Source: Candidatus Omnitrophota bacterium
Lineage (GTDB): Bacteria > Omnitrophota > Gorgyraeia > Gygaellales > Profunditerraquicolaceae
Length of the DNA: 64,000 bases
Reading direction: 5' to 3'
Assembly: GCA_028716965.1 (NCBI GenBank)
Contig: JAQUOV010000004.1
Span: 8,377 to 72,376, forward strand
The translations under genes were made by a program, and so were the position numbers. Position 1 is the first letter of the stretch. Every line of letters begins with the position of its first letter. Of this stretch, positions 7,885 through 58,160 are shown piece by piece. The notes below the pieces were generated by a model that was not told the origin of the DNA, searched no databases, and saw only the letters and a list, made by a program, of their open reading frames with translations.

Positions 7885-7898
7885 AATAAGTATTTAGT

Positions 7899-7971
7899 GT
7901 TTTACGGGTCCTGTCGAGCCTTGTTTTCGCCGCACATTGCGGCTCAAATCAAGTCTCGCCACCCGTAAAAC
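7899..7971 (+). repeat. Family B 73-nt nested-hairpin repeat, copy 1 (purF-purM intercistronic)
   Basis: Outer stem GTTTTACGGGT/ACCCGTAAAAC, second stem CGAGCCTTG/CAAGTCTCG, inner hairpin GCCGCAcatTGCGGC. Second copy at 19476-19548. Confidence 0.7.
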
Positions 7972-10357: not shown

Positions 10358-10393
10358 CTTTTGACATTTTACCTTTGGGTTGTTGTTTGCGTG

Positions 10394-10613
10394 CATTAAT
10401 GAATCTGTCGTTTTGCTCGCTCAGGTCGATTTTTTAACGCCAATGCTCTTTCGCATTTCGGTGGCTGCGGAACTTGCGGTATTTGCTCTTGCAAATACCG
10501 CTCAAGCATCCTCGCCATCCCCGTTTTGTCGCTTCGCTCCACGGGGATACCCGAAATGCTCAAGCTCCATTGGCTAAAATCGACATTCACTCGCAATAAC
10601 GCCAGATTCATTT
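10394..10613 (+). repeat. Family C MITE-like element, copy 1 (about 220 bp, about 45-bp imperfect TIRs)
   Basis: Head AATGAATCTGTCGTTTTGCTCGCTCAGGTCGATTTTTTAACGCCAATG is the inverted complement of tail CATTGGCTAAAATCGACATTCACTCGCAATAACGCCAGATTCATTT. Central hairpin TCCCCGT...ACGGGGA. About 85% identical to the copy at 36728-36944. Confidence 0.7.
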
Positions 10614-10624
10614 AGGCGTATTTA

Positions 10625-10705
10625 AGAGATAAGTTGTATTGTGCACATTTGCCGAAAATTTTCTAATGCGCGCTCCGCCAAAACCGCAAAACTTGATGAT
10701 TTTTA
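10625..10705 (+). repeat. Partial family D element (right-half fragment)
   Basis: GCACATTTGCCGAAAATTTTCTAATGCGC matches the D motif GCACACTTTTGCCGAAAATCTTCTAATTGTGCC seen in copies at about 29860-30085 and 54165-54395. Confidence 0.5.
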
Positions 10706-10750
10706 AAATCGCGCCTATAGATGTAATAAGAACAAATAAGAGGATTTATT

Positions 10751-11479
10751 ATGGATGATGGTCGTAAGTTTTTGAGATATATTGTTCCTGCTTTTGTTTA
10801 TTTTGTTGAAGTAATTTTATTTCTATCTTTATTTTTAGTTTTTAATCCTTCAATATGCACATTTAACTTATCAAACGATCTAATCAACGAAAATAATATT
10901 TTAGAAATCATTATTATGGGTTTTATTGTAAGTGGAGGATTAGGTGCTTTTTTTTGTCAAATATACCATGTAATCTATTCATTTCACGTAGTTGACCTTC
11001 GAAATTCCATAATAGATGCTATAGAAAAAGGATGTTTAAAAGTAATGGAGAGGGGCAAAGCTTTAGAAGCTAAGAACATAAAGAATTGTAACAAAAGAAT
11101 TTTCTTAATGATTGATACTGTTTTGTGGAGTCAGCGTAGTGAACTTAACAATAAAATTAAAGGAGCAAAAGATAGGACTCAAACATACCATGATCATTTG
11201 CATGGTATAGGTGGAGTAATTGTTGCTACTTTTTTTGCTTTTGTAAGTTGGTTCTTCATAATCGGATACATAGCAGAAGAAATGTGTCTATTCAATCTTG
11301 CGTATTGGTTTATTATTTGTTCCTGGGTTGTATTATTTATTATCTTCTTTCTTGGATACTTTAGAATAAGGGAACAACTAGAATTTCATCGCTATTCTAT
11401 TTTAATAGATGTTTTGAAAGATGATTTCTTTTGGAATAATAAGAAACCTGCGGAGGTAGATATTCCTTGGGTTAAGTAA
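10751..11479 (+). CDS. Hypothetical 4-TM membrane protein, compositionally foreign (about 30% GC)
   Basis: 242 aa, two hydrophobic helices at each end, central soluble region with HDHLHGIGG. Strongly AT-rich codon usage unlike all flanking genes. Lies directly after the C/D repeat pile-up. Confidence 0.55.
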   Translation: MDDGRKFLRYIVPAFVYFVEVILFLSLFLVFNPSICTFNLSNDLINENNILEIIIMGFIVSGGLGAFFCQIYHVIYSFHVVDLRNSIIDAIEKGCLKVMERGKALEAKNIKNCNKRIFLMIDTVLWSQRSELNNKIKGAKDRTQTYHDHLHGIGGVIVATFFAFVSWFFIIGYIAEEMCLFNLAYWFIICSWVVLFIIFFLGYFRIREQLEFHRYSILIDVLKDDFFWNNKKPAEVDIPWVK

Positions 11480-11722
11480 ATGAAAATAGAGGAGTAAATG
11501 GAGACAGAATGAGTAAATGGTTTCAAGATTATTTTAGCGGGTGAGTTGGTTTGATTTTGAGCAGGGCGTGGAGGCAAGGAGCGGGCACGGTTCCGTCATT
11601 TTAGTGTCAGAGAGCGACGCCAGCCGACTCGAGCGAAGTTTTGACACGCCGGGGCAAAACGAGCGTCCCTGCGAAAAACAAACCAAGCCAGGGCCCGCGC
11701 AAGGCAGGATTGAGGAGGGAAA

Positions 11723-16926: not shown

Positions 16927-18170
16927 AACATTTAAAACAGATTGACCCGGAGATTTACGCAGCGATTAAGAAAGAGATGCAGCGCCAGGATGAGAACCTT
17001 GAGTTGATCGCCTCGGAGAACTTTGCTTCTTTGGGAGTGTTGGAGGCCCAGGGCTCTGTGTTGACCAATAAATATGCCGAGGGATATCCCGGCAGGCGCT
17101 GGTATGGCGGGTGTGAATATGTAGATACCGCAGAGAGCCTTGCTATTGAACGGGCCAAAGCAATATTCGGCGCAGAGCACGCCAATGTCCAGCCGCATTC
17201 AGGTTCGCAGGCGAATATGGCGGTGTATTTTGCGGCGATAAAACCGGGAGATACGGTCCTGGCTATGGATTTAGCTGCCGGAGGCCACCTCACCCACGGC
17301 CACCCGCATAATTTCTCCGGGATGTTTTATAAGATCGTCGGTTACGGCGTGGACAGGAAAAGCGAAACCCTGGATTATGATGCCATCCTTGAGCTTGCCA
17401 AAACACATAAGCCGAAGATGATACTGGCAGGCGCCTCGGCGTATCCAAGGACAATTGATTTTAAGAAGTTCCGCCAGATCGCTGACAGCGTCGGGGCGTA
17501 TCTATTCGTGGATATGGCGCATATCGCAGGGCTGGTCGCTGCCGGGGTTCATCCTTCTCCCGTACCTTACGCGGAGTTTGTTACCTCTACTACGCATAAG
17601 ACCTTGCGCGGCCCGCGCGGCGGGTTTATCCTTTGCAGGAAAGAGTTTGCCAAGAAAATAGACAGCCAGATCTTCCCCGGGATACAGGGGGGGCCGTTGA
17701 TGCATGTGGTTGCCGCCAAAGCCGTGGCATTTGCCGAGGCAATGACGCCGGAGTTTAAGCAATACCAGGCCCAGCTGGCTGAAAATGCCAGGGAGTTAGC
17801 AAAGGCTTTGGAGAAAAAAGGCTTTCGCATCGTATCCGGAGGCACGGATACGCATTTAATGCTCGTAGATCTGAATGCCAAAAATATTACCGGCTCCGAT
17901 GCTTCAAGGATTTTAGGGCAGGTAAATATTACGGTAAACAAGAACCTTATACCTTTTGATCAGAAGTCTCCGCTTGTAACAAGCGGTATCCGCCTGGGCA
18001 CGGCGGCAGTAAGCACGCGCAAGATGAAAGAGGCGCAGATGCAGAAGATCGCCGGTTTAATCAACGATGCGCTGGAAAACCAGGCCGATATGAATAAATT
18101 AACTGAAATCAAAAAGGAAACGATCGCTTTAGCCAGAAAGTTTCCGCTATATCCGGAGCTATTGAAATAA
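16923..18170 (+). CDS. glyA: Serine hydroxymethyltransferase
   Basis: 415 aa. PLP-site [19 protein letters not shown] and [10 protein letters not shown] motifs. Confidence 0.92.
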
Positions 18171-18251
18171 TATGAACCCCTCGCCTTCTGTAAATTTAAC
18201 TATTGAAGCCATGGGGTTTAATGAGCTGACTAAGGAAGAAGGTGCGGGATG
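18171..18251 (+). repeat. Family A junction element, copy A1 (short derivative of the GIY-YIG cassette)
   Basis: Left arm TATGAACCCCTCGCCTTCTGTAAATTTAAC, right arm GAAGGTGCGGGATGA. Contains in-frame micro-[29 protein letters not shown] whose TGA overlaps ATG 18249 of the downstream gene. Confidence 0.75.
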
Positions 18252-18710
18252 AAAAAGAGCAGAACTATACATAAGCGCCCTACGTGGGATGAATATTTCC
18301 TGGAGATGGCAGGCTTGGTTGCCAAAAGGTCAACCTGCCTGCGCCGCTCTGTTGGTGCGGTATTGGTAAGAGAAAAAAGAATTTTGGCTACCGGTTATAA
18401 CGGCGCTCCCAGCGGTTTGAAGCACTGTGTTGAAATCGGCTGTATACGCCAGCAGTTAAAGATACCTTCCGGAGAACGCCATGAATTATGCCGCGCCTTA
18501 CATGCAGAGCAGAACGCGCTTATCCAGGCCTGCCTGCACGGCATAAGCGTAAAAGGCGCAACTTTATATGCCACTAATCAGCCGTGCGTTATCTGCGCCA
18601 AGATGCTCATTAACGCCGGGATAAGGGAGATCGTAATTGCCGAAGGCTACCCGGACAAAATGGCGATGAGCTTCTTAAGGCAGGCAAAGATAAGAATAAG
18701 GAAAATATGA
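18249..18710 (+). CDS. Deoxycytidylate (dCMP) deaminase, ComEB-like
   Basis: 153 aa. CDA-fold zinc motifs HAEQNA and PCVICAKML; N-terminus KRPTWDEYF typical of dCMP deaminases. Stop TGA lies inside the left arm of element A2. Confidence 0.8.
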
Positions 18711-19011
18711 ACCCCGCACCTTCTTTAAATTCAATAATGTACCATGCGTATCTTCTTAAAAGTAAAAAGAATGATACTTTTTATATTGGATATACAAATA
18801 ATATTGAAAGAAGGTTAAAAGATCATAGCTCCGGGATAGTTGAATATGCAGGGAAATATGTGCCTTGGGAAATAGTGTATTATGAAAGCTCTATTTCCTT
18901 GGTTGATGCTAATCAAAGGGAGAGATCTCTTAAATCTTTTGGGAGGGCATATTCAGGTTTAAAACTTAGAATTAAAAATAGCTTGAATAAGAAAGAAGGT
19001 GCGGGGTGAAG
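18704..19011 (+). mobile_element. Family A full-length element: TIR-flanked YhbQ-like GIY-YIG cassette (putative autonomous copy)
   Basis: Left end ATATGAACCCCGCACCTTCTTTAAATTCAA and right end TTGAATAAGAAAGAAGGTGCGGGGTGAAG are inverted complements (16-bp perfect core ACCCCGCACCTTCTTT). The ends enclose a 100-codon GIY-YIG ORF. Confidence 0.75.
18707..19009 (+). CDS. GIY-YIG nuclease superfamily protein (UPF0213/YhbQ-like)
   Basis: 100 aa. [32 protein letters not shown] matches the GIY-(x10)-YIG plus conserved R/H catalytic region of YhbQ-like proteins. Conserved EGAG near the C-terminus as in E. coli YhbQ. ATG overlaps upstream TGA (ATGA); its TGA overlaps the nrdR GTG (GTGA). Confidence 0.8.
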
Positions 19012-19473
19012 TGTCCGTTTTGCGGATATAAAGAGGATAAGGTCGTGGACTCCCGCGCTACAGCCGAAGAATCGGCAGTCAGGCGCAGAAGGGAATGCCT
19101 GAAATGCGGCAAGCGTTTCACTACTTATGAGTATGTTGAAGAGGTCTCTTTGTTAGTGATCAAGAAAGACGGCCGCAGGGAGGCCTTTGACCGTAAAAAG
19201 ATCTTAGCCGGTATAATCCGCGCCTGCGAAAAGCGTCCGGTGAGCGTGGAAAAGATGGAAGGGGTAGTTGTCCAGGTTGAGCATGCCATCCAGAAGAAAA
19301 GTGACCGCGAGGTTTTGTCCAGCAGGATAGGGGAGCTGGTTATGGAGAAGCTTAAGCAGATTGATGATGTTGCTTATGTGCGCTTTGCCTCGGTCTATAG
19401 GCAGTTTAAGGACGTGGGGCAGTTTATGGTGGAGTTGAGGGATATTTTGGGCAAAGATAAGAAGAAGAAATAG
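19006..19473 (+). CDS. nrdR: Transcriptional repressor NrdR
   Basis: 155 aa. N-terminal zinc ribbon MKCPFCG...CLKCGKRFTTYE plus ATP-cone; GTG start supplied by the element A2 right arm. Confidence 0.9.
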   Translation: MKCPFCGYKEDKVVDSRATAEESAVRRRRECLKCGKRFTTYEYVEEVSLLVIKKDGRREAFDRKKILAGIIRACEKRPVSVEKMEGVVVQVEHAIQKKSDREVLSSRIGELVMEKLKQIDDVAYVRFASVYRQFKDVGQFMVELRDILGKDKKKK

Positions 19474-19475
19474 GC

Positions 19476-19548
19476 GGTTAGCGGGTCCTGGCGAGGCTTG
19501 TTTTCGCCGCGCACCGCGACTCAAATCAAGCCTCGCCACCCGCTAACT
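19476..19548 (+). repeat. Family B 73-nt nested-hairpin repeat, copy 2 (after nrdR)
   Basis: Outer stem GGTTAGCGGGT/ACCCGCTAAC, second stem GCGAGGCTTG/CAAGCCTCGC, inner CGCGcacCGCG. Same 73-nt length and architecture as 7899-7971, with compensatory substitutions. Confidence 0.7.
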
Positions 19549-26921: not shown

Positions 26922-27851
26922 GTGAGGATAAAGAATACGGAGATTAAGGTTGTGCTGGGGGATATTACGGAGATAAGGGCGGATGCGATTGTGAATGCCG
27001 CTAACAACAAGCTGGTTATGGGCGGGGGAGTAGCCGGGGTAATTAAGAAAAAAGGCGGCAAGGTGATTGAAGAGGAGGCGCTTAAGAAGGGGCCGATAGG
27101 TATCGGAGAGGCGGTTGAGACTTCCGCCGGAGAGCTGGCGGCAAAATATGTGATTCATGCGGCGACCATGGGAATGGATTTTAAAACAGATGAAGTGATG
27201 ATCCGTAATGCCTGCAGGAGTTCCTTAAAGCTGGCCGAAGAATTGAAGATTGGTTCTGTTGTTTTTCCGGCTTTGGGGTGCGGCACAGGAGGCTTTCCGC
27301 TTTTGGCTTGCGCAAAGATTATGGCGCAGGAAGTGCTAAGACACCTGCGGGAAGAAAATACCTGTTTAGATGAGATTGTTTTCTGCCTTTATACTCAAGA
27401 TGCGTTTACGGTTTTTAATAAAGGCGTTTTAGGGTATTTGGAATACGTGACTACAAAGTTATCCTCGGGCCCGTTTGTGACGGTAGATGCGATTATTGAA
27501 TTGCCCGAGGGGATTGTAATTATCCAGCGCAGCAACCCGCCGTTTGGCTGGGCGCTTCCGGGAGGGTTTGTGGATTACGGCGAAAGCCTGGAGCAGGCGG
27601 TAAAAAGAGAGGCTAAAGAAGAAACAAACCTGGATTTAATTAACATCAAGCAATTCCGCACTTATTCAAATCCCAAGCGCGACCCAAGATTCCACACTAT
27701 CGGTACGGTATTCATTGCTAAAGCAAAAGGTAGGCCTAAGGCAGGGGATGACGCGGCAGGTTTAAAAATTATCAAACCTGCCGAGATAGAGAAGCTTGAT
27801 TTTGCTTTTGACCACAAAGACATCCTTCATGATTACCTCAAAACAAAATAG
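26922..27851 (+). CDS. Macro domain (ADP-ribose/O-acetyl-ADP-ribose binding) fused to Nudix hydrolase
   Basis: 309 aa, GTG start after GGAGGA. N-terminal macro motifs [21 protein letters not shown] and HAATMG. C-terminal Nudix box [29 protein letters not shown]. Confidence 0.8.
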
Positions 27852-27923
27852 GGACGTTTCTTGACCCAATCGGAGAAGTGTCCCCATAGGGGACACTTCT
27901 CCCTTTAGCTTGAGAAACGTCCC
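27851..27923. terminator. Family E 73-nt palindromic hairpin between convergent genes (likely bidirectional terminator), copy 1
   Basis: GGGACGTTTCTTGACCCAATCGGAGAAGTGTCCCC pairs with GGGGACACTTCTCCCTTTAGCTTGAGAAACGTCCC. Located between the Macro-Nudix stop (27851) and the helicase stop (27929). Confidence 0.6.
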
Positions 27924-27928
27924 TAATA

Positions 27929-29809
27929 TTAACCTTCGCGGAGTTGTTTTTCGGCGTCAACAATATCGCGGTTTATTACGCGGATAGTTTCTTTTATTTT
28001 GTCTTTAAGCAGGTAAGAGGCAATCGGCGCCTGCGAGATCTCCCTTAAAACCTGCACGCTCATCCTGAAATAACGCACTACCTCGCCTTCGTCGCAATCA
28101 GTCATCTGCAGGGTTTTACCGAAGTTTGTCCCGCGCAGCCATGCCTCCATGCTGGAACAGAGATGAAAATAGGGCAGCTTACTGAAGGGGTAGATCTTAT
28201 AGCGGCGCTCCTTGTCTTTTAATCTGTCATATGTTTCTTCGCAGGTACGTTTGAGCGCGCGGCTGGATTTAGATATACTTGACGGCATGCGCTGATTTTT
28301 GCGCGGCTCAAAAACAACCGCGGAAGCCACTACGCCTAATTCAAATTCATCCAGCTGCTCAAGTATATTTTGGTCATATAATTCCGCCAGGACCAATTCA
28401 TATCCGTAAATAGTTTTAGCGAACCTTCCTTTTTCGGAAAGTTTCCCTTCATGGATGTAACCCAATTCTTTGAGCAGCCTTAGTTTTGCGTCCAGCAGGT
28501 TTAATGCCTGTTTTTGCTCATTCTTGCGCGACTGATAATAATGCAAAGAGAGGGGGTAGATTTTAAATAAATCCTCCTGGTATTTTTCGTAAAGGTTAAG
28601 AATAGTGGCATAAGAGGTGTTCAGCTGGCTCTTTACCTCTTCGGGCTTGCCGAAGATTATCCTGCTGACCTCTTCAAAATTTATCCTCTGCGGGTTAACC
28701 CGCGTGTAAACAAACCCTTCTTTATCTATCCCGCGCCTTCCGGCCCTGCCGGCCATCTGATAAAAGTCGCGCGTTTTCAGGTTGCGCACGTAAGTGCCGT
28801 AAAATTTACGCAGGCCGTCAAACATTACCGAGCGGCTGGGCATATTGATCCCCAGGGCAAAGGTTTCGGTAGTAAAAATAACTTTGAGCAGGCGGCTGGT
28901 AAAAAGCCGCTCGATTACCTCCTTTAAGGTAGGCAGCATCCCGGCATGATGATAGGCAATGCCGCGCTGTACCAGGGGATAGAGGATCTGCGCCGACTGT
29001 TCATGTTTTAAATTAAACCGTTCAAGCAGGTCTTCGTACATCTGGGTGATCGCGCGGGATTCTTTGGCGTCCAGGAATTTAAATCCGTATAAATCCTGGG
29101 CTAATTCCTCCGCGCGTTTGCGGCTGAAGACAAAATATATCGCCGGCAGCCCGTCGTTTGTACGCAGGTAGTCGATCAGTGAATTCAACCTGTTGGGTTT
29201 AGCGGAGCGCAGGCGTTTAAGGCGCTCAATTTTATCCACGATTTCATTCTGGCACTGGAAAAGGAAATGCAGCGGCACCGGCCGGTTTTCTTCAATGACT
29301 ACTTTTATGGCTTTATCGTGGATAGATTCGATCCAGCTGGCGAATTGTTTGATATTGGGGATGGTCGCGGATAACCCCAGCAGGTTCATCTGTTTAGGCA
29401 GGAAGATCAATGATTCCTCCCAGACCGTGCCGCGTTCGGGGTTATCAATGTAATGGATCTCGTCAAAGATGATCCAGGAGTATTTATCAAGGCTCTCTGG
29501 CTCATCCAGTATTTTGTTGCGGAAGATCTCGGTAGTCATGATCAGTACCGGGGCCTGGGGATTAATGGAAACGTCGCCGGTAAGGATGCCGATATTGTCC
29601 TGGAACTGGGCCTGGAAGTCGCGGAACTTCTGGTTGGAGAGAGCTTTAATCGGCGCGGTATAAATTACCCCCAGGTTATTGCGGATAGAGTTACTGATAA
29701 TGTACTCGGCAATCGCTGTTTTACCCGCCCCTGTAGGAGCAGAGACAATTACGGAGTGGCCCTGGTTGATATGGTCAATGGCTTCCTGCTGGAACCGGTC
29801 GTAAATCAT
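27929..29809 (-). CDS. Ski2-like DEXH-box helicase (DEIH)
   Basis: 626 aa. Walker A APTGAGKT, DEIH box, SAT motif, QMAGRAGRRG motif VI; overall Ski2/Hel308-like core. The only confident minus-strand gene in the window. Confidence 0.8.
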   Translation of the reverse strand: MIYDRFQQEAIDHINQGHSVIVSAPTGAGKTAIAEYIISNSIRNNLGVIYTAPIKALSNQKFRDFQAQFQDNIGILTGDVSINPQAPVLIMTTEIFRNKILDEPESLDKYSWIIFDEIHYIDNPERGTVWEESLIFLPKQMNLLGLSATIPNIKQFASWIESIHDKAIKVVIEENRPVPLHFLFQCQNEIVDKIERLKRLRSAKPNRLNSLIDYLRTNDGLPAIYFVFSRKRAEELAQDLYGFKFLDAKESRAITQMYEDLLERFNLKHEQSAQILYPLVQRGIAYHHAGMLPTLKEVIERLFTSRLLKVIFTTETFALGINMPSRSVMFDGLRKFYGTYVRNLKTRDFYQMAGRAGRRGIDKEGFVYTRVNPQRINFEEVSRIIFGKPEEVKSQLNTSYATILNLYEKYQEDLFKIYPLSLHYYQSRKNEQKQALNLLDAKLRLLKELGYIHEGKLSEKGRFAKTIYGYELVLAELYDQNILEQLDEFELGVVASAVVFEPRKNQRMPSSISKSSRALKRTCEETYDRLKDKERRYKIYPFSKLPYFHLCSSMEAWLRGTNFGKTLQMTDCDEGEVVRYFRMSVQVLREISQAPIASYLLKDKIKETIRVINRDIVDAEKQLREG

Positions 29810-29859
29810 GATTTCTATTATAAGCCAAAAAGCCGCAACCGCAATATAATAATCTCAAT

Positions 29860-30085
29860 TATTCGCTTTCCGTCTTTCGCTTCGGCACGAAGATTTTCGC
29901 TGTGTGCTTCGGTTTACGTCTCGTTTCGGCAGCGCAGGTTCCTTACGCAATAAGGCATTGCCTGCACTCGCCGTAAAGCCTTGCACACTTTTGCCGAAAA
30001 TCTTCTCATTGTGCCTCCAGCAAAAGACGGAAATCTCATGGCGAGAAACAAGCCAAGGCAGCTCCGATAGCTAAAATCATTGATT
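29860..30085 (+). repeat. Family D MITE-like long-hairpin element, copy 1
   Basis: TTCCGTCTTTCGCTTCGGCACGAAGATTTTCGCTGTGTGC ... GCACACTTTTGCCGAAAATCTTCTCATTGTGCC ... CAAAAGACGGAA; arms are imperfect inverted complements. Homologous to 54165-54395. Confidence 0.65.
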
Positions 30086-30113
30086 TATCTTATAATAATA
30101 ATATAATAAAAAT

Positions 30114-32934: not shown

Positions 32935-33025
32935 CGGATGGTCCTTAAGCCAAGGGAAAAGTGTCCTTTGTAGAGGAAGTTATCCACTACGGGGACACTT
33001 CTCCGATTGGCTCAAGAAACGTCCC
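32935..33025 (+). repeat. Family E hairpin, degenerate copy 2 (after spoVG)
   Basis: Right half GGGGACACTTCTCCGATTGGCTCAAGAAACGTCCC (32991-33025) is the inverted complement of the E1 left arm. Left partner CCAAGGGAAAAGTGTCC is degenerate. Confidence 0.5.
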
Positions 33026-33035
33026 TGCTTAAAAG

Positions 33036-34731: not shown

Positions 34732-36732
34732 ATGTCTAAAAATCTGGTTATCGTAGAGTCGCCTACCAAGGCTAAAACCATAAGCAAGATCCTGGGCCAG
34801 GATTTTAGCGTGGTTTCCTCCATGGGGCATATTATTGACCTGCCGCAGAAAGAATTGGGCGTAGATGTAGATAATAATTTCAAGCCGGAATATGTGATTA
34901 TCCCGGCCAGAAAGAAATTGTTGACCCAGCTTAGAAAAGAGGCCAAGTCAAAAGAGAAGATATATGTGGCAACCGACCCTGACCGGGAGGGTGAGGCAAT
35001 CGGCTGGCAGATAAAAGAAAAGGTCTTTAAGGGCAAGGATGTCCTGCGGGTAAGTTTTCATGAGATTACCCCGCATGCGGTAGGGGAGGCCTTTAAATCC
35101 GCACGTGAGTTTGACGCCAATATGATTGAGGCCCAGGTCGGCCGCAGGGTGCTGGACCGTATCGTCGGATATTTCTTGAGCCCTTTACTTTGGAAAAAAC
35201 TTGCCCGCGGTTTAAGCGCAGGGCGCGTGCAATCCGTAGCCTTAAGGCTGATCGTGGAACGGGAACGCCAGATCCAGGCCTTTACCGCCAGCGAATATTG
35301 GGAGATTATCGCGGAGTTATTTAAGCCTAAGGTCTTCGGGGAGAGTAGTTTTTGCGCTAAACTTGAAAAGATAGACGGTGAAAAAGCGCAGATTAAGACC
35401 CAGGATGAAGCGCAAGCGATCGTAGAGCAGCTTAAGGAAAAAGAGTTTAAGGTCCTGGAGGTTAAGCAAACAGAAAAGAAACGCTATGCCCCGGCTCCAT
35501 TTATCACCAGCACTATGCAGCAGGAGGCCTTTAATAAGCTTAAGTTTAATGCCTCCAAAACCATGATGGTGGCGCAGCAGCTTTACGAGGGTATTGATAT
35601 CGGCGGGGATAACCCCCTGGGCTTGATTACTTATATGCGTACGGATTCTCCGAATACCGCTCCGGAGGCAGTTGCCGAAGTGCGTGAGCATATCGGCAGG
35701 GTCTTCGGCAAGGATTTTGTCCCGGAGAAACCGAATTTTTTCAAGGCTAAAAAATCAGCGCAGCAGGCGCATGAAGCGATCCGGCCAAGCTATGTTTCGC
35801 GTTCTCCGGAAAGCATGAAAGATTTCTTAAGCCACGACCAGTTTCGTTTATATGAGCTCATTTATAACCGTTTCCTGGCCAGCCAGATGAAACCCGCTGA
35901 ATTCCTGGCTACTTCGGTAGATATCTGCGCGGATAAATATTTGTTTGCGGCTAACGGAAGCCATTTGCTTTTTGAGGGGTTCCTGGCTGCTTACAACAGG
36001 ACCGAAGAGGAGGAAAAGGATGACGAGGAGGAGAAAGAAAAAAACAAGAATGTGGTCCCTCCTTTAGAACAAGGAGAGGTTCTCGGTCTGACTAAGCTTG
36101 TGCCCTCCCAACATTTTACCAAGCCGCCTCCGAGGTTTTCGGACAGCTCTTTAGTCAAGGCCCTGGAAGAGGACGGGATCGGCCGGCCTTCAACCTACGC
36201 GCCGATTATTTACACGCTCATTCTGCGCGATTATGTGCGCAGGATTAAAGGCTATCTTAACCCCACGGAGCTTGGTTTCAAGGTCAGCGATATGCTGGTA
36301 GAATATTTCCCGAAGATTATAGATGTCAAGTTTACCGCGCTTATGGAGGATGAGCTGGATGAGATTGAAGAAGGCAGGCTTAAGCGCGTGGAGGTATTAA
36401 AAGAATTCTACGCCCCTTTTAAAGAGAGCCTGGATTTTGCCCAGGCGAATATAAAGAAGGAGGTTATTACTACCGATCAGATTTGCGATAAATGCGGCAA
36501 GCCTTTTATCATAAAGTGGGGCCGGCGCGGTAAATTCCTGAGTTGTTCGGGTTTTCCCTCCTGCAAGAATTCCAGGTCTATTACTTCCGGTGTCAAATGC
36601 CCGGAAGAAAATTGCGGCGGGGAATTGATCGAGCGCAGGTCAAAGCGCGGTTTTTTCTATGGTTGTTCAAACTTTCCGAAATGCACCTTTACCTCGCGTA
36701 CGTTGCCGCAGGATAAGGAAGATACGCAATGA
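34732..36732 (+). CDS. topA: DNA topoisomerase I
   Basis: 666 aa. TOPRIM N-terminus MSKNLVIVESPTKAKTISKILG, active-site Tyr region, C-terminal Cys4 zinc ribbons (CDKCGKP, CPEENCGG). Confidence 0.92.
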   Translation: MSKNLVIVESPTKAKTISKILGQDFSVVSSMGHIIDLPQKELGVDVDNNFKPEYVIIPARKKLLTQLRKEAKSKEKIYVATDPDREGEAIGWQIKEKVFKGKDVLRVSFHEITPHAVGEAFKSAREFDANMIEAQVGRRVLDRIVGYFLSPLLWKKLARGLSAGRVQSVALRLIVERERQIQAFTASEYWEIIAELFKPKVFGESSFCAKLEKIDGEKAQIKTQDEAQAIVEQLKEKEFKVLEVKQTEKKRYAPAPFITSTMQQEAFNKLKFNASKTMMVAQQLYEGIDIGGDNPLGLITYMRTDSPNTAPEAVAEVREHIGRVFGKDFVPEKPNFFKAKKSAQQAHEAIRPSYVSRSPESMKDFLSHDQFRLYELIYNRFLASQMKPAEFLATSVDICADKYLFAANGSHLLFEGFLAAYNRTEEEEKDDEEEKEKNKNVVPPLEQGEVLGLTKLVPSQHFTKPPPRFSDSSLVKALEEDGIGRPSTYAPIIYTLILRDYVRRIKGYLNPTELGFKVSDMLVEYFPKIIDVKFTALMEDELDEIEEGRLKRVEVLKEFYAPFKESLDFAQANIKKEVITTDQICDKCGKPFIIKWGRRGKFLSCSGFPSCKNSRSITSGVKCPEENCGGELIERRSKRGFFYGCSNFPKCTFTSRTLPQDKEDTQ

Positions 36733-36944
36733 ACCTTGTAAATTTCTCGCTCAAGCCGATTTTTTAACGCCAATGTTCTTTCATATTCCGGCGGTTGCAG
36801 AACTTACGGTATTTGCTCTGGCAAATACCACTCAAACAGCTTCGCCGTCCCCGTTTTGTCGCTTCGCTCCACGGGGATTCCCGGAATACTGAAAGCTCCA
36901 TTGGCTAAAATCGACATTCGCTCGAAATTTACCAGGTTCATTTT
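36728..36944 (+). repeat. Family C MITE-like element, copy 2 (inserted at the topA stop codon)
   Basis: Head AATGAACCTTGTAAATTTCTCGCTCAAGCCGATTTTTTAACGCCAATG and tail CATTGGCTAAAATCGACATTCGCTCGAAATTTACCAGGTTCATTT are inverted complements. The topA TGA lies inside the terminal AATGAACC. Confidence 0.7.
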
Positions 36945-36970: not shown

Positions 36971-37840
36971 ATGGAAAAATATATTGAGAAGTTTATCCGT
37001 TACCTGGAGATAGAAAAGAATTATTCCGGGCACACTGTGCTTAACTACAGGTTGGACCTTGAGGATTTCGGCAGGTTCCTTGCCGGCACGGAATTAGAAA
37101 AGATAGACTATCTTTCGCTTAGGAAATACCTGGGGGTCTTAAAAGAAAAGAATTTAGGCAACCAGAGTATCGGCCGCCGGCTTTCTGCCCTGCGCAGTTT
37201 TTTCAGGTTTCTCTGCCGTGAAGGGTATCTTAAAACAAACCCTATCCTTATGCTTTCCAGCCCCAAACTGGATAAACACCTGCCTTCTTTTATGACGGAG
37301 GATGAGGTGAGCAAACTTATTGAGTCAGCTTTTGCCAGGGGTGAAGCCGACATCCTGGGTTTACGCGACCGGGCGGTCCTGGAGGCATTTTACTCAAGCG
37401 GCCTGCGTATTTCGGAGCTGGTGGGTTTGAATTTAGACGATATTGATTTTATCGGCGGCATCTTAAAAATAAGAGGGAAGGGAAAGAAGGAAAGGGTGGT
37501 GCCGGTCGGGGAAGCGGCGCTGATGGCGATTAAGAAATACCTGGATAGGAGAAAAAAGCAATCCTCCGCCGTATTCTTAAACAGAAATTCCCGGCGGATT
37601 ACTACGCGCGGCGTACGTTATATACTGGTAAAATACCTGCGCCTGGCCGGGACAAAGCCGGGGGTTTCCGCGCATACCTTCAGGCATTCCTTTGCCACCC
37701 ATCTTTTAAACCGCGGGGCAGACCTGCGCACGGTGCAGGAACTCCTGGGGCATGCGAACCTTTCTACGACCCAGATTTATACGCATCTGACAACTGAAAA
37801 GCTAAAGAGTGTTTATGATAAGGCACACCCGCACGCATAG
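36971..37840 (+). CDS. xerC: Tyrosine recombinase XerC/XerD
   Basis: 289 aa. N-terminal SAM-like domain, catalytic R...HxxR...Y (HTFRHSFATHLL, LGHANLSTTQIYTH). Confidence 0.85.
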   Translation: MEKYIEKFIRYLEIEKNYSGHTVLNYRLDLEDFGRFLAGTELEKIDYLSLRKYLGVLKEKNLGNQSIGRRLSALRSFFRFLCREGYLKTNPILMLSSPKLDKHLPSFMTEDEVSKLIESAFARGEADILGLRDRAVLEAFYSSGLRISELVGLNLDDIDFIGGILKIRGKGKKERVVPVGEAALMAIKKYLDRRKKQSSAVFLNRNSRRITTRGVRYILVKYLRLAGTKPGVSAHTFRHSFATHLLNRGADLRTVQELLGHANLSTTQIYTHLTTEKLKSVYDKAHPHA

Positions 37841-45797: not shown

Positions 45798-47715
45798 GGC
45801 CGCAAGCCTCCTTACTTCTTTTCTGCCTTTAAATGTGAGCCTGTTTTTTGGCAGGAGGCTGGGGGACCTTATTTATTTCTTTGATGCCCGGCACCGCGGG
45901 ATCGCCTGCGCCAATATCAGGAGGGCCATAGTAATGAATAATGACTTCCTGCAGGCCCGCAAGATAACACGCAGGGCTTATCAGTCTTTTGGCCAGAACC
46001 TTATAGAGATTTCTTTTATCCCGCGCATAAATAAAAAATATCTTGATAAATTCATCCATATTGAAAACAGGCAGTATATTGATGAAGCCTTTAAAAGGGG
46101 CAAAGGGGTAATCTTTCTGGCTGCCCATGAAGGTAATTGGGAGCTTTCTAATATTATCTGTGCCAACCTGGGTTTTTCGTTTATCCTGTTTGTCCGCGAC
46201 CAGGGTTTCGTGCGGCTAAACGCCCTGCTTAATTCTTACCGGCTTAAGCAGGGCGCAAAGATTATCCATAAAAAAACCGGGCTGCGCCAGTTGATTGATG
46301 TGCTTGAAAGCAACCAATCCATAGGCATGACCGTTGACCAGGGGGGCAAGCACGGAGAGGTAGTGAATTTCTTTGGCAAATCCGCCTCGATGTCTACCGG
46401 TGCGGTGAAGCTGGCCCTGAAACATGACTGTTCCATAATCCCTGTTTTTTATACGCGCATAAAAGGGCCTCATACTAAAGTTATCCTGGATCAGGTTTAT
46501 ACGGTAAGCAAAAGCGGGGACCTGCAAAGGGACCTGCGCGATAACCTGGAGAGGCTGGTCAATATTTACGAGAAATATATCCGGCAATACCCCCACGAGT
46601 ATCTCTGGACTTATAAAATTTGGAAGTATGGCAAAGAAAAAGATATCCTCATTCTTTCCGACGGTAAGGCCGGGCACCTGCGCCAGTCTGAAAGCGTAGC
46701 TAAGTTAGCCAGCCGGAAATCAGCTGCCCGGGGGGTAAAGACTACTTTGTCTATTTGCGAAGTGAAATTCCGCACCAGCCTGCGCAGGTTTATATTCAGC
46801 CGGATGGTTGTACTATGCGGCAGGCATCAATACCATCTCTGCCTGCGTTATCTGCGCTATGCGCTGGAGGCAGCAAGCTGGCAGAGTTTGATCGGTTTCA
46901 AGCCCGATATTGTTATTTCCGCAGGGGGTAAATTGAGCGGGGTAAATTATATGCTGGCTAAAATAAACCAGGCTAAATCAATTGTCCTGATGCGTCCGGC
47001 AGCCCTAAACCCAAAGGGATTTGACCTGGCAATTATTCCCGAACACGATATGCCGCAGGGCCGTGGTTTGGCTTTCAGGAAAAATATAGTACTAACCGAA
47101 GGGGCGCTTAATTTGGTGGATGCGGATTATCTAAGAGAAAGGTCAGAGAGGCTGCAGCAGTCAGGTTTTTTGAAAGGGCCTTTGTTGAAACCCTGTATCG
47201 GAGTTTTGATCGGCGGCAATAGCAGGAAGTTTTCAATTACCCGGCAGGCGATAATAGAACTGGCAGGTCAAATCAAGGGGGCTGCTGAAAAGCTTGATGC
47301 GGATATCCTCTTATCCACCTCGCGCCGTACGCCGCCTGAAATAGAACAGCTGCTTAAAAATGAATTTGAAGCTTATCCGCGCTGCAGGCTTTTAATTATT
47401 GCCAATGAAAGAAATCATCCTGATGCCGTAGGCGGCATACTGGGGTTAAGCAGGGTAATTGTCAGTTCGCCGGAGAGCATCTCCATGATCTCCGAAGCGG
47501 TGGCGGCAGAAAGATATGTTATCGTATTTATGGCCTCCGGCCTTAGTATGAAGCATCGGCGTTTCTTGAAAAGTTTTCAGGACAAGAGGTATATATATAT
47601 AAAACAGGCTGGAGAGTTGTTTAGCTCCATTGAAGAGATATGGCAAAACCGTCCTGAGCTTAACTTTTCTGCGGATAACTCAAGGGTAAGCGCAGCTTTA
47701 GATAAAATACTATGA
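45751..47715 (+). CDS. Lipid A late acyltransferase (LpxL/HtrB family) fused to ELM1/DUF1022-like domain
   Basis: N-terminal half has the HX4D acyltransferase motif (AAHEGNWELS) and EYLWTYKIWKY motif of LpxL. C-terminal ~330 aa resembles the mitochondrial-fission ELM1 / DUF1022 glycosyltransferase-like family. Annotated start overlaps lpxK by 47 nt, so the true start may be later. Confidence 0.7.
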   Translation: MKQNLIADYLSCFLFRAASLLTSFLPLNVSLFFGRRLGDLIYFFDARHRGIACANIRRAIVMNNDFLQARKITRRAYQSFGQNLIEISFIPRINKKYLDKFIHIENRQYIDEAFKRGKGVIFLAAHEGNWELSNIICANLGFSFILFVRDQGFVRLNALLNSYRLKQGAKIIHKKTGLRQLIDVLESNQSIGMTVDQGGKHGEVVNFFGKSASMSTGAVKLALKHDCSIIPVFYTRIKGPHTKVILDQVYTVSKSGDLQRDLRDNLERLVNIYEKYIRQYPHEYLWTYKIWKYGKEKDILILSDGKAGHLRQSESVAKLASRKSAARGVKTTLSICEVKFRTSLRRFIFSRMVVLCGRHQYHLCLRYLRYALEAASWQSLIGFKPDIVISAGGKLSGVNYMLAKINQAKSIVLMRPAALNPKGFDLAIIPEHDMPQGRGLAFRKNIVLTEGALNLVDADYLRERSERLQQSGFLKGPLLKPCIGVLIGGNSRKFSITRQAIIELAGQIKGAAEKLDADILLSTSRRTPPEIEQLLKNEFEAYPRCRLLIIANERNHPDAVGGILGLSRVIVSSPESISMISEAVAAERYVIVFMASGLSMKHRRFLKSFQDKRYIYIKQAGELFSSIEEIWQNRPELNFSADNSRVSAALDKIL

Positions 47716-47794
47716 ACCTCGCACCTTCTAAGTATCCGACTATTAAAGGTATGAGGTTGAATGGATTTATTAAAGAGGAAGGTGCGGGGTGAAG
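47711..47794 (+). repeat. Family A junction element, copy A3
   Basis: TATGAACCTCGCACCTTCT ... GAGGAAGGTGCGGGGTGAAG. In-frame micro-ORF MNLAPSKYPTIKGMRLNGFIKEEGAG. Supplies the TGA stop of the upstream gene and the GTG start of the downstream gene. Confidence 0.75.
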
Positions 47795-52119: not shown

Positions 52120-54131
52120 AGATACTTTTCGTGACTTTAAGCAATATAGGCGACTGCATTTTGACCCTTCCGGTTTTAGATGCCTTGCGCAACGAATACC
52201 CTCAGGCCCTGATCAGCTGTCTTGTGCCTGAACGGCCTAAGGAAATTTTCATCAACAATCCCGCCGTAGAAAAGATAATCGTTTTTGATAAGCGTTCCAG
52301 CCTGGCGGATAAGATAAAATTGTTCCTTTCTCTGAGCAGGGAAAGGTTTGATATAGTCATTGATTTACGAAACAGCTTTTTCGGGGCCTTCCTGCCGGCT
52401 AAAAAAAGGAGTTCGCCGCTGCGCTTCATTCCGGGCAAGTTCAGGCATATGAAAGATAAGCATCTGTTCTGGGCGGGTTTTGCCGGTTATCCTATGAGGG
52501 ATAAAAAACAGCAATCTTTGGTTATTGCCCCCGAAGATGTTGCTTATATTGAGAAGATTTTGAATAGCCGCGGGCTGACTGACAGCGCTAAATTGATCGT
52601 GGTTTCTCCCGGAGCAAGGAGCCAGGTCAAACGCTGGGATAAGCATAATTTCAGCCTGCTTTGCAGTCGGCTTATAAAAGAAGGCTGGGATATCGCCCTG
52701 GCAGGGGATAAGAGCGATGAGCCTGTATGTGAATATGTTTTTCATGCGGCTCCGGAAAAAATACTCAATCTTTGTTCTAAAACTTCAATCAGCCAACTGG
52801 CTGCCTTGTTAAAAAAATCACGCCTTCTTGTTACTAACGACAGCGCGGTAATGCATTTGGCCAGCTATTTAAATGTCCCGGTTGCTTCAATATTCGGGCC
52901 TACTGATGAAAACAAATACGGTCCCTGGTCGCAGAAGAAACTAATTATAAAAAAAGACATCTTCTGCCGGCCGTGCGAAAAAGCCCAGTGCCGTTTTGCT
53001 ACTCTGGCATGTTTATCTTGCCTGAAGGTTGATGATGTGCTTGGGCAGATAAAGGGTTTGCTTAAGGGTGCGGAAAATCCGGATACCGGCAATACCCGCC
53101 AAAGCTATAGGCGTATCCTGGTTGTGCGCACTGACCGCATAGGCGATGTGCTGTTGTCTACGCCGGTAATTAAAGCTTTAAGGGATAAGTATCCCCAGGC
53201 TTACATTTCCATGATCGTGGCCCCTTATGCGCGGGATATTGTGGAGGGCAACCCGTATCTGGATGAAATTATAATTTATGATAAGGATAACAAACATAAA
53301 GGTTGGCTGCATTCACTTAAATTTGCCCGCAAATTAAGAAAAAAGAGATTTGATTTAGCGGTGATATTACATCCTACCAACCGCATGCATCTGCTGCTTT
53401 TTCTTACCGGGATCCCCAAGCGGTTAGGTTATAAACGCAAATTTGGTTTTTTGAATAATCCGGCAAAAGCCCATCTAAAACAGGAAGGCCTAAAGCATGA
53501 ATCAGAATATAACCTGGATTTAGTGCGCGATTTAGGCATAAGCGGCAATCCGCAGGACCTCTTCATGCCTGTAAGGCAGGAATCAGAGCAGTGGGTCAAT
53601 GATTTATTCTCCGGGTGCGGGATCAAAGAGGCGGATAAATTGCTGGCGATTAATCCCGGCGCAAGCTGTCCCTCAAAGATCTGGCCGGCGGCTAACTTTG
53701 CGCAGGTTGCCGAAATATTAGCCAGGCGGCATAGTTTTAAAATCCTGATTGTCTCCGGGCCCAAGGATACTTTGCTTGCAAACATGATCGCTAATAAAAT
53801 CGGTGAGCAGGCGGTAAACCTGTCCGGCAAGACCTCGGTAAGCCACCTGGCCAGTGTCCTTAAAAGGTGCGTTTTATTTATTTCTAATGATTCCGGGCCG
53901 GTTCATATTGCGTCAAGTTTAGGGGTGCCGGTTGTTTCTATTTTTGGGCGTAACCAGCCCGGGCTTAGCCCGCGGCGCTGGGGGCCGTTAGGCAGGAAGG
54001 ATAAATACCTGCATAAAGACGTAGGCTGCATCCAATGCCTGGCGCATAACTGTAAAAAGGAGTTTGCCTGCCTTAAGGCAATCAGCGTTGAGGATGTGCT
54101 TGCTGCCGTCGAATCCATACTCAAAGGTTAA
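52116..54131 (+). CDS. Tandem double glycosyltransferase family 9 (two heptosyltransferase domains in one ORF)
   Basis: First GT9 domain MKILFVTLSNIGDCILTLPVLDAL ... NDSAVMHLASYLNVP. Second RRILVVRTDRIGDVLLSTPVIKAL ... NDSGPVHIASSLGVP. Confidence 0.75.
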   Translation: MKILFVTLSNIGDCILTLPVLDALRNEYPQALISCLVPERPKEIFINNPAVEKIIVFDKRSSLADKIKLFLSLSRERFDIVIDLRNSFFGAFLPAKKRSSPLRFIPGKFRHMKDKHLFWAGFAGYPMRDKKQQSLVIAPEDVAYIEKILNSRGLTDSAKLIVVSPGARSQVKRWDKHNFSLLCSRLIKEGWDIALAGDKSDEPVCEYVFHAAPEKILNLCSKTSISQLAALLKKSRLLVTNDSAVMHLASYLNVPVASIFGPTDENKYGPWSQKKLIIKKDIFCRPCEKAQCRFATLACLSCLKVDDVLGQIKGLLKGAENPDTGNTRQSYRRILVVRTDRIGDVLLSTPVIKALRDKYPQAYISMIVAPYARDIVEGNPYLDEIIIYDKDNKHKGWLHSLKFARKLRKKRFDLAVILHPTNRMHLLLFLTGIPKRLGYKRKFGFLNNPAKAHLKQEGLKHESEYNLDLVRDLGISGNPQDLFMPVRQESEQWVNDLFSGCGIKEADKLLAINPGASCPSKIWPAANFAQVAEILARRHSFKILIVSGPKDTLLANMIANKIGEQAVNLSGKTSVSHLASVLKRCVLFISNDSGPVHIASSLGVPVVSIFGRNQPGLSPRRWGPLGRKDKYLHKDVGCIQCLAHNCKKEFACLKAISVEDVLAAVESILKG

Positions 54132-54164
54132 TTGATATTTTGTTCTTCGAGATATTGTTCGCAT

Positions 54165-54395
54165 GCGAAAATTTCGCCGTGCGCTAAGCTTTCCGTCTTT
54201 TGTTTCGGCACGAAGATTTTCGCCGTGTGCTTTAAGTTTACGTCTCGCTGCGGCTGCAGTATACTTACGCTGGTAAGATTCTGCCTTCGCTCGACGTAAT
54301 TCCTCGCACACTTTTGCCGAAAATCTTCTAATTGTGCCTTAAGCAAAAGCCGTAAATCTTAGCGAGAGGCAAGTCTCGGCAAACCCGCTAAATTG
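54165..54395 (+). repeat. Family D MITE-like long-hairpin element, copy 2
   Basis: CGCTAAGCTTTCCGTCTTTTGTTTCGGCACGAAGATTTTCGCCGTGTGC ... GCACACTTTTGCCGAAAATCTTCTAATTGTGCC ... CAAAAGCCGTAAATCTTAGCG. Homologous to 29860-30085. Confidence 0.65.
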
Positions 54396-54426: not shown

Positions 54427-55374
54427 GTGCTAAAATCATTGTCTATGATTGATCCAAAGAAGGTAAAAAGGTATTCTATCAAAACACGCTTCAGTAAGGT
54501 GAATGAGAAGGATTTTGCACTTAAGCCGGCTAAACTTAAGAGCTTCCGCGCCTTCTTAGATTCCTTGCCGGATATCCTTAAAGCCAGGGATTTGCGCGCC
54601 CTTTCTGCGGATGTCGCCTCGGCAGCCAGGAAGAAGAAGGCGGTGATTTTGATGGCCGGCGCGCACGTGATTAAGTGCGGGCTTAACCCGGTGTTAATAG
54701 AGCTGATGAGAAAGAAGGTAATCAGCTGTATCTGCCTTAACGGCGCCGGGATCATCCATGATTTTGAGATTGCCTTTCAGGGCAAAACATCCGAAGACGT
54801 TGCCGAAAACCTTAAAAACGGCAGTTTCGGCATGGGCAAGGAAACCGCGGATTTTATTAATCAGGCGGTTAAAGACGGGGTGAGCGAAGGCTTAGGCCTG
54901 GGCAGTTCCGTGGGAAAGATGATCTCCGATGAGAAATTGGCGTATAAGGATTTGAGCCTGCTTTATAACGCTTATAAATATAATCTGCCGGTATGCGTTT
55001 TCGTGGGGATCGGTACGGATATCATCCATCAGCATCCTTCATTTGACGCCGGTTTAACCGCCGAAGGCTCGTTGCGCGATTTCCACACTCTCGTCGAGAA
55101 GATAAGCTCGTTAAACAAAGGGGGAGTGGTTTTAAATTTTGGTTCAGCGGTGCTTTTACCCGAAGTATTCTTAAAAGCGCTTAACCTGGCGCGAAACCTC
55201 GGGAATAAAGTCAAGGATTTTACTACCGCCAACTTTGATATGATTTATCATTACCGGCCGGCGCAGAATGTGGTGAACCGTCCTACTCATTCAGGAGGCA
55301 GGGGCTATTACATTATCGGCCATCACGAGATAATGCTGCCGCTTTTAGCGCAGGCGGTCATCGAAAAAATATGA
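54427..55374 (+). CDS. Deoxyhypusine synthase-like family protein
   Basis: 315 aa. Segments CLNGAGIIHDFE, PVCVFVGIGTDIIHQ and GGVVLNFGSAV parallel the DHS/homospermidine-synthase fold motifs. Embedded within the LPS gene block. Confidence 0.5.
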   Translation: MLKSLSMIDPKKVKRYSIKTRFSKVNEKDFALKPAKLKSFRAFLDSLPDILKARDLRALSADVASAARKKKAVILMAGAHVIKCGLNPVLIELMRKKVISCICLNGAGIIHDFEIAFQGKTSEDVAENLKNGSFGMGKETADFINQAVKDGVSEGLGLGSSVGKMISDEKLAYKDLSLLYNAYKYNLPVCVFVGIGTDIIHQHPSFDAGLTAEGSLRDFHTLVEKISSLNKGGVVLNFGSAVLLPEVFLKALNLARNLGNKVKDFTTANFDMIYHYRPAQNVVNRPTHSGGRGYYIIGHHEIMLPLLAQAVIEKI

Positions 55375-55453
55375 ACCCCGCACCTTTTTTAATTTAGTTA
55401 TTATAAGGTGCAGGGGTTAGAATTCATGAATAAAGAGAAGGTGCGGGGTGAAG
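55370..55453 (+). repeat. Family A junction element, copy A5 (degenerate)
   Basis: TATGAACCCCGCACCTTTTTTAATT ... AAGGTGCAGGGG ... AATAAAGAGAAGGTGCGGGGTGAAG. Micro-ORF broken (MNPAPFLI stop); 1-nt deletion in the right arm. Confidence 0.7.
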
Positions 55454-58018: not shown

Positions 58019-58160
58019 ACCCCCGCACCTTCTGTAAATTCAAGTATCAGGAGAATACGGCTTAATGATTTAAATAAGAATGAAGGTTCCGGGATAAGTT
58101 GGTTTGAGGTTAAGATTTAAGATTTGAATGAATTCATAGGAGGAAGGTGCTGGGTGAAGA
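58014..58160 (+). repeat. Family A junction element, copy A6 (with duplicated right arm)
   Basis: TATGAACCCCCGCACCTTCTGTAAATTCAAG ... AATAAGAATGAAGGTTCCGGGATAAG ... GGAGGAAGGTGCTGGGTGAAG. Extra C breaks the micro-ORF frame. Confidence 0.7.

Follow-up and report, generated by a model that had tools for sequence, protein, structure and literature searches.

Two full and two partial copies of a non-coding hairpin repeat, here named D and about 175 nt long (range 165-185 nt), were found in the 64,000-nt stretch of Candidatus Omnitrophota DNA that was analysed as a whole (hereafter, the window). D is a previously undescribed repeat family of an already familiar kind, and it belongs to one clade of Candidatus Omnitrophota. 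A profile search of all fetched sequences recovered about 88 copies, flanked by 83 protein families and falling into about 51 locus groups; the dispersed family of non-coding long-hairpin repeats that the preliminary description had proposed is thus borne out. D is probably a non-autonomous repeat with a bulged core that is recognized in trans, nearer to REPIN/RAYT or structure-recognized elements than to a DDE-type MITE, and would subsequently have been reshaped by homologous recombination. If this is correct, a well-defined repeat family, described by its consensus, structure, subtypes, decay series and two companion modules (Y and Z), is added to a phylum known solely through metagenomes.

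Copies of D in the window

The window is a gene-dense segment of a bacterial chromosome with nearly all genes on the plus strand and a uniformly positive GC skew (about +0.13). The DUF3786 protein encoded beside copy A (below) has 100% identity to one from a "Candidatus Omnitrophica bacterium" MAG. Copy A of D occupies 29865-30034 (plus strand) according to its sequence and folds, and is matched by the covariance model at 29859-30041 with 163.9 bits. Its left core, GGCACGAAGATTTTCGCTGTGTGC, is at 29884-29907, its right core, GCACACTTTTGCCGAAAATCTTCTCATTGTGCC, is at 29983-30015, and its outer stem, within 29865-30034, is GCTTTCCGTCTTTCGC / GCAAAAGACGGAAA. This copy lies between two divergent genes, one encoding a DSHCT helicase (start at 29809, minus strand) and the other a DUF3786 protein (30114, plus strand). 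Copy B, likewise delimited by sequence and folds, occupies 54182-54364 (plus strand; 160.6 bits) between the genes for a family-9 glycosyltransferase (stop at 54131) and a deoxyhypusine-synthase-like protein (start at about 54427-54445), and its outer stem reaches as far as CGCTAAG / CTTAGCG.

Copies A and B can be aligned over about 180 nt, with arms 83-93% identical, and both were recovered in the family profile search with E-values of about 1e-43. The left-arm 18-mer CGGCACGAAGATTTTCGC is present exactly twice in the window (29883 and 54206, plus strand) and the right-arm 17-mer TTTGCCGAAAATYTTCT exactly three times (10648, 29990 and 54313, plus strand), counts that no shuffle reached; TTTGCCGAAAATCTTCT is present exactly at 29990 and 54313. 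Both copies were predicted to fold into a single long imperfect hairpin, at -78.7 to -89.7 kcal/mol as RNA (z = -4.3 to -6.1), and into a single long hairpin at -40 to -50 kcal/mol as single-stranded DNA (z = -5.5 to -9.1). Exact motifs, alignment, profile and folds therefore agree with the preliminary description on full copies at both of these loci; the ends that it gave them, 30085 and 54395, are too far to the right, since the last 30 nt or so belong to module Y.

The two partial copies belong to a second subtype. A right-half fragment, TTGTGCACATTTGCCGAAAATTTTCTAATGCGCGCTCCGCCAAAACCGCAAAACTT, is at 10639-10694 (plus strand; nhmmer E = 1e-12; covariance model 10623-10699, E = 6e-4), between a Band-7 gene and an ORF without a Pfam match. 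It is closely similar, in its core and outer right stem, to the right-hand end of the full copy at locus L012, and its left half is absent. A truncated left arm of an older copy, ATATTTTGTTCTTCGAGATATTGTTCGCATGCGAAAATTTCGCCGTGCGCTA, is at 54135-54186 (plus strand; nhmmer 54144-54188, E = 0.0014) and ends abruptly at the start of copy B. An intact subtype-2 element is present in the orthologous spacer at L014 and L075, and the nested arrangement, in which copy B cuts the older arm, is common to the window and L029. When the whole window was scanned with the covariance model, filters off, only 29859-30041, 54182-54364 and 10623-10699 were recognized; the left-arm remnant at 54144-54188 is a weak match to the profile HMM only and is not among these three places. 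Hence the fragment reported earlier near 10625-10705 is real, but the count of two full copies plus one fragment is too low, as it missed the truncated arm; the fragment, moreover, is of another subtype than the full copies (GCGCGC and not GGCAC). Similarly, the two full copies had been said to sit in the only sizeable non-coding gaps; these gaps (304 and 295 nt) are in fact the second and third largest in the window, the largest (10358-10750, 393 nt) contains the right-half fragment, and gaps of about 240 nt exist as well.

Architecture and distribution of the family

In an alignment of 73 copies, D is composed of three zones: a conserved two-arm core, a fast-evolving outer stem and a variable tip. 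The core reads G(G/C)(C/G)(A/G)C-GAA(A/G)ATTTTCGCYGTGYRC-T.CGG-TTTAC in the left arm and GTAAA-TCCTYG-YRCAC-WTTT-GCCGAAAATYTTC-TNAT-G(T/C)G(C/G)C in the right arm. These pair in four helices comprising 28 pairs, with 98.8% of 2004 cells paired and compensatory double changes at 11 of the 28 pairs (169 cells); none of 500 shuffles equalled this, and slid controls were 31-59% paired. Because the loci were gathered by exact core motifs, by which divergent relatives may be missed, the invariance of the core is partly a matter of construction. The two arms are asymmetric, the right one invariably having an extra WTTT bulge, a TNAT insertion and a C·C mismatch, and the covariance model scores about 160 bits in the sense and about 35 bits in the antisense direction, so that D has a defined strand direction. 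Each arm (about 85 nt, on either side of a tip of about 50 nt) is also near-palindromic in itself around GAAAATTTTC; the compensatory changes, however, keep the pairing between the arms and not that within them (in subtype 1, GAAGATTTTC / GAAAATCTTC).

The conserved block is subterminal, and conservation is lowest at the termini of D. The outer stem, of about 20 bp, depends on the subtype: the left arms have a median identity of only 42% between copies (outer 24 nt), and yet the two sides co-vary and complementarity is kept within each copy, cognate duplexes having a mean energy of -20.2 kcal/mol against -9.7 for non-cognate ones. By inspection of the 73 copies, the bases of the stem read (A/G)ATTTYNNGG...CCNNRAAAT. 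The tip (about 49 nt) is moderately conserved and, taken alone, folds no better than shuffles. Subtype 1, to which copies A and B belong, has GGCAC...GTGCC with the outer stem AGCTTTCCGTCTTT / AAAAGCCGGAAAGCT; subtype 2, represented by 10639-10694 and 54135-54186, has GCGCGC or GCGTGC; and in a divergent subtype the core is GAAATTTTTC / GAAAAATTTC or is otherwise changed on both sides, and the bulge contains insertions of 15-25 nt. A short GC-rich palindrome (CCTGCCTGCCGGTAGGCAGGCAGG and variants) was noticed at L010 (about 1290-1330), at L056 (about 2650-2680) and in spacers of L086 and L088. It recurs as an insertion in the bulge of D, in spacers and inside Y (L071 and L084), and may be a separate REP-like mini-repeat.

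D is non-coding. The distance from arm to arm, modulo 3, is distributed as 22/27/23, and therefore no reading frame is conserved. Peptides such as LKIFAVRYGL and RKSLRTFAENFLM do recur in ORFs through D, but this is because the underlying DNA is conserved; a protein-coding role was rejected, as no frame is kept.

When one genome of each GTDB species was searched with a 21-nt core pattern, 17 loci were obtained, of which 14 are true copies, in 13 species-level MAGs labelled Omnitrophota or "uncultured Planctomycetales", and the other three are chance matches inside genes of unrelated bacteria. Half of the true matches (7 of 14) are less than 400 nt from a contig end, and three are severed by it, as is expected if repeats of this kind break MAG assemblies. 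Searching metagenome contigs with a two-arm pattern added 67 loci. Most MAGs contain one or two matches to the core 21-mer in fragmented assemblies often broken at D, and one contig of 922 kb contains a single match; the copy number of D may be low in most genomes. Rfam 15 gave no match to D in the window and 13 loci at the gathering threshold and chance-level matches only at E-values up to 10, and a check for known RNAs found no tRNA or tmRNA genes. Viral contigs of IMG/VR contain no match to the right-arm 21-mer; eight viral matches to the left-arm 19-mer were due to chance, the covariance model finding nothing in them, and distant blastn searches of plasmids and phages with D also found nothing. 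A phage or plasmid origin was rejected on these results. Nothing relevant on repeats or RNA motifs of Omnitrophota was found in the literature.

Turnover at orthologous spacers and companion modules

Spacers orthologous to that of copy A, between the helicase and DUF3786 genes, were retrieved through protein homologues. Both flanks are conserved, including a promoter-like TTGATT-16-TATAAT, and the content between them varies. The window has D of subtype 1 and a remnant of Y; L032 has D of subtype 2 (610-787) and a full Y; L087 has a mini-D of about 75 nt (2136-2212) and a full Y; and L086 and L088 have no D, with other palindromic modules instead. L057 (1268-1450) combines the left half of the window copy (29859-30041) with the right half of that in L032. 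It is thus a recombinant allele, subtype 1 on the left and subtype 2 on the right with the crossover within the conserved core, so that pairing of the outer stem is lost. The mini-D copies of about 75 nt, in L087 and at L077 (545-620), keep the outer stem and have lost the interior between two GAAAATTTTC motifs; their form suggests deletion by slippage across the hairpin. At the site of copy B, between the glycosyltransferase and deoxyhypusine-synthase-like genes, at least five subtypes were found, in sense orientation at six loci and in antisense at three, and in L048 one sense and one antisense D lie side by side. The contig of L085 begins 150 nt upstream of the DUF3786 orthologue, within the variable spacer (1-150), and has a tandem duplicate of AACCGGACATTTCTATTTTGG; this is a further assembly break at a mosaic region.

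Such variation in presence, subtype, orientation, mini-forms and recombinants indicates that D behaves as a repeat that is dispersed and either mobile or recombining, rather than as a conserved leader. No clean pair of filled and empty sites was found, the whole content of the spacer being replaced in every comparison, so homologous exchange could account for the turnover without transposition. The preliminary description had itself named a conserved regulatory leader as the alternative to a dispersed repeat. That D should be a locus-specific leader or promoter of the downstream genes is extremely improbable, and the conserved leader is ruled out by the 83 unrelated gene families that adjoin D and by the relatives of the helicase and DUF3786 spacer with other versions of D or none. 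It is true that D is co-oriented with the downstream gene at most loci, and that by eye the right arm contains a weak sigma-70-like pattern, TTGCRC-17 nt-TCTAAT. However, the consensus scan, which called no conserved terminator or promoter in D, did not call this pattern, the -10 hexamer of which has no A at position 2, and TCG replaces TTG in about a quarter of the copies. Moreover, the genes have a good promoter of their own downstream of D (the TTGATT-16-TATAAT at 30080-30107).

The region 3' of D is similar in 52 of about 85 copies, and this similarity was traced to a second module, Y. It is about 190 nt in length, forms a branched long hairpin whose outer stem co-varies, and reads TAGCGGGTGGCTTGG...GAGCGGGCACGG...CGTCCCTGCGAGAAACAAGCCAAGACAGGACCCGCTAA; neither the gathering nor permissive thresholds gave a match in Rfam. 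A full Y is at 11535-11702 in the window (plus strand; nhmmer E = 1e-42), and another example is at 455-650 in L006. Adjoining copy A is a 3' remnant of Y, GGCGAGAAACAAGCCAAGGCAGCTCCGATAGC, at 30040-30071 (plus strand), where L032, L057 and L087 have the full module of about 190 nt, and adjoining copy B is another, GCGAGAGGCAAGTCTCGGCAAACCCGCTAA, at 54362-54391 (plus strand), where the orthologous spacers of L014 and L075 have a full Y. A third module of about 200 nt, Z, is present twice in the window (10398-10610 and 36728-36940, plus strand; 83-94% identical), the first copy being directly upstream of the D fragment at 10639-10694. Its 3' end, GGCTAAAATCGACATTCGCTCGAAA..CCAG.TTCATTT, adjoins D in both orientations at many other loci (for example, L054, L058, L067 and L072). 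D, Y and Z are modules of one set of mosaic intergenic repeats. In addition, a pair of 81-nt repeats, 80% identical, was observed at 7885-7965 and 19462-19542 in the window. They read ACGGGTCCTGxCGAGxCTTGTTTTCGCCGC...CAAGxCTCGCCACCCG and, by eye, look like a reverse-oriented, internally deleted mini-Y similar to the mini-Y of L030 and L061.

Where two D copies are close to each other (less than 1.5 kb), they are convergent, that is, inverted, in all five cases, and four of the pairs enclose a single ORF. The pair in L018 (5554-7119) encloses a 291-aa ORF without a Pfam match; that in L056 (1433-2795), a 284-aa ORF whose N-terminus resembles, by eye, a signal peptide; that in L067 (6606-7689), HEPN_AbiU2; and that in L077 (545-1898), in which one partner is the mini-D, AbiJ. 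The pair in L048 (7822-8299) encloses nothing. Further single neighbors of D encode DUF4041-T5orf172 and an AbiEii-like nucleotidyltransferase, and at L023 and L071 a single D is found in the position of D-ORF-D' in L018. These features, and a structure whose invariant extrahelical bases are conserved while the sequence varies, would suit an attC-like folded recombination site, with D marking the ends of single-gene accessory cassettes inserted between housekeeping genes by a site-specific recombinase. We consider this rather improbable. The pairs are inverted, whereas integron arrays are direct; no RYYYAAC/GTTRRRY boxes are found at the base of the stem; most copies are singletons between housekeeping genes; and L018 differs from L023, and likewise from L071, over the whole spacer and not by a precise cassette. 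Neither does an integrase adjoin any D copy examined. The sole tyrosine recombinase of the window (36971-37840) is 7 kb from the nearest copy, directly after topA, a position from which it is taken to be the housekeeping XerC.

The fragment preceded by Z and the full Y have between them an ORF (10751-11479, plus strand), where other loci place accessory or defense genes. It encodes 242 aa with predicted membrane segments and has no Pfam match, and no homologue of it adjoins other D copies. D marks hypervariable spacers at which accessory and defense genes swap, and its covariance model can find copies elsewhere and flag such spacers.

Strand, mobility and relation to known repeats

For orientation counts, redundant and orthologous loci were collapsed into 51 groups; the genes at the loci were called by a simple heuristic, the longest ORF being taken. 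D is oriented with both neighboring genes in 27 and against both in six (p = 3e-4), and it lies between divergent genes in four and convergent genes in two. Co-orientation in 27 of 33 tandem contexts would agree with a cis-acting RNA element that is part of the transcript, at the 3' end of the preceding gene or in between two cistrons, and blocks exonucleases or binds a double-strand RNase or another protein, its spread being maintained by selection on the transcript; REP, ERIC and Correia elements are precedents for such transcript roles. The near-perfect pairing with its compensatory changes and invariant bulges, the significant RNA folds, and a left edge 0-60 nt past the upstream stop codon in most cases with both genes on the plus strand speak for it as well. 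We nevertheless regard this explanation as unlikely. The left edge is usually 0-60 nt from the neighboring gene whether a stop or a start is there, and the right side is 60-400 nt from the next gene and contains the other modules and the next promoter, which are always to the right of D; these explain the closeness on the left, and proximity to a stop codon is thus by itself no argument for a 3'-UTR. Copy A lies between divergent genes and so is at no gene's 3' end, other genomes have D in antisense at the orthologous site, some orthologous spacers have no D at all, and there is no U-tract (T-run) 3' of the hairpin.

The gene-co-oriented strand folds worse than its complement (-70.4 versus -78.3 kcal/mol), the antisense being better in 62 of 69 copies. 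Among departures from pairing on the sense strand, G·U-type and A·C-type are balanced in the core (20 versus 16), and this lack of a strand-specific wobble excess counts against RNA-only selection. The outer stem has 13 G·U-type versus 36 A·C-type departures, and 94 pyrimidine-pyrimidine versus 8 purine-purine ones. For a structured RNA read with the genes, the opposite of this outer-stem pattern would be expected. As a discriminator between RNA and DNA, the wobble-pair asymmetry is ambiguous, the core being balanced and the outer stem favoring the antisense. Folds and departures together suggest that the arms are kept complementary as DNA or, alternatively, on the opposite strand. The evidence on transcript-level effects of D is mixed, and they would be secondary at most.

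As for mobility, several decay forms of D were found, namely, half-copies, truncated arms and internally deleted mini-copies, and D copies recombine with one another inside the conserved core. Neither a target-site duplication nor a conserved target motif was seen at the hairpin base of the clean-ended copies, the only ones read; MFE-based end-calling over-extends in many copies, and the AT-rich flanks mask a duplication of 2 nt. A tblastn search of 651 kb around the copies with IS200 and IS608 TnpA sequences found no transposase or RAYT-like gene at E < 0.4, which is a weak negative. No parent autonomous IS was found either, in that no gene flanked by arm-only matches was present among the loci fetched. 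The term "MITE-like" used in the preliminary description therefore fits as far as a dispersed hairpin repeat is meant, and otherwise applies only loosely, because neither a duplication nor a transposase or parent IS was found and conservation is lowest at the ends of the element. The defined strand direction, the invariant asymmetric bulges and the 27:6 orientation bias suit REP/REPIN-like or other structure-recognized elements at least equally well.

The directional bulged core, kept by compensatory change in every examined copy, points to a conserved trans-acting partner, with a transposase, a recombinase or an RNA/DNA-binding protein as candidates. On the reading that we prefer, a non-autonomous D would be moved or exchanged in trans by machinery that recognizes the arms, folded or paired, by their conserved core with its asymmetric bulges. 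Copies would persist nowhere but in the short stretch that separates a stop codon from the promoter that follows, and homologous recombination, both among copies and via the flanking genes, would reshuffle D, its neighboring modules and single accessory genes, any effects on transcripts being secondary. A more speculative extension, to which we give little credence, is that D, Y and Z form the recognition or boundary site of an uncharacterized cassette-exchange system of Omnitrophota, in which convergent pairs of a structure-recognized DNA hairpin would bracket single defense or accessory genes swapped between housekeeping genes.

Known repeat systems were compared with D on the basis of established knowledge and six papers (PMC3116915, PMC3337134, PMC2649163, PMC2229807, PMC3049150 and PMC10969869). 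In its manner of working D is like REP/REPIN, Correia/NIME, ERIC and BOX/BIME repeats. The REP/REPIN-RAYT systems of Pseudomonas and Enterobacteria resemble D in being extragenic and non-coding, with two inverted arms around a spacer that form a hairpin, in their defined strand direction, in having no target duplications, in a hairpin kept by compensatory evolution, in persistence across many related species, and in mosaic clusters with other repeats (PMC3116915, PMC3337134). However, the arms of D (about 85 nt) are four times too long when compared with REP arms of 20-40 nt, D is conserved in mid-arm with variable ends and has no evident GTAG-type 5' tetranucleotide, no RAYT was found in the 651 kb, and the copies seen per genome are few, whereas those of REP number hundreds. 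The Correia and Neisseria intergenic mosaic elements are also intergenic inverted repeats (100-160 nt) that form hairpins in transcripts, exist in full-length and internally deleted forms, are present or absent between related genomes, and combine with other small repeats into mosaics in the variable spacers that separate conserved genes (PMC2649163, PMC2229807). Correia elements differ from D in their conserved 26-bp terminal repeats, TA target duplication and IHF site (PMC2649163, PMC2229807), none of which is detectable in D, the outer ends of which are its most variable part.

ERIC, BOX and BIME elements are likewise imperfect palindromes in transcribed intergenic regions, modular (as with D, Y and Z here) and uncertain in their mechanism of spread (PMC3049150, PMC2229807); D is different from them in sequence, in host phylum and in its one fixed architecture of outer stem, bulged core and tip. 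Bacterial MITEs derived from insertion sequences share with D a small, non-coding, dispersed, full-length inverted repeat with subfamilies and decayed copies (PMC10969869). D, in contrast, has no target-site duplication, no matching autonomous IS that we could find, non-conserved termini and strongly asymmetric arms. Integron attC sites are alike in being folded single-strand sites whose extrahelical bases are conserved and whose terminal structure varies, located just after ORFs and associated with single accessory genes; D differs in having no R/L box consensus, no arrays and no integron integrase, and in its inverted instead of direct pairs. Two features of D are unusual: the subterminal, asymmetric, strongly conserved core beside a fast-co-evolving outer stem, and the convergent pairs around single accessory genes.

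Two other kinds of hairpin were observed in the window. Short hairpins on AACCCCGCACCTTCT / AGAAGGTGCGGGGT are present at gene ends (18161-18254, 18696-18738, 18977-19011, 47701-47794, 55360-55449 and 58021-58098), and could be either terminator-like or a further family of small repeats. A near-perfect palindrome of 77 nt (AGGGACGTTTCTTGA...GGGGACACTTCTCC) is at 27849-27925, and a related arm is 5 kb away, at 32983-33026; the two bracket the block from the helicase gene to the chorismate synthase gene that contains copy A.
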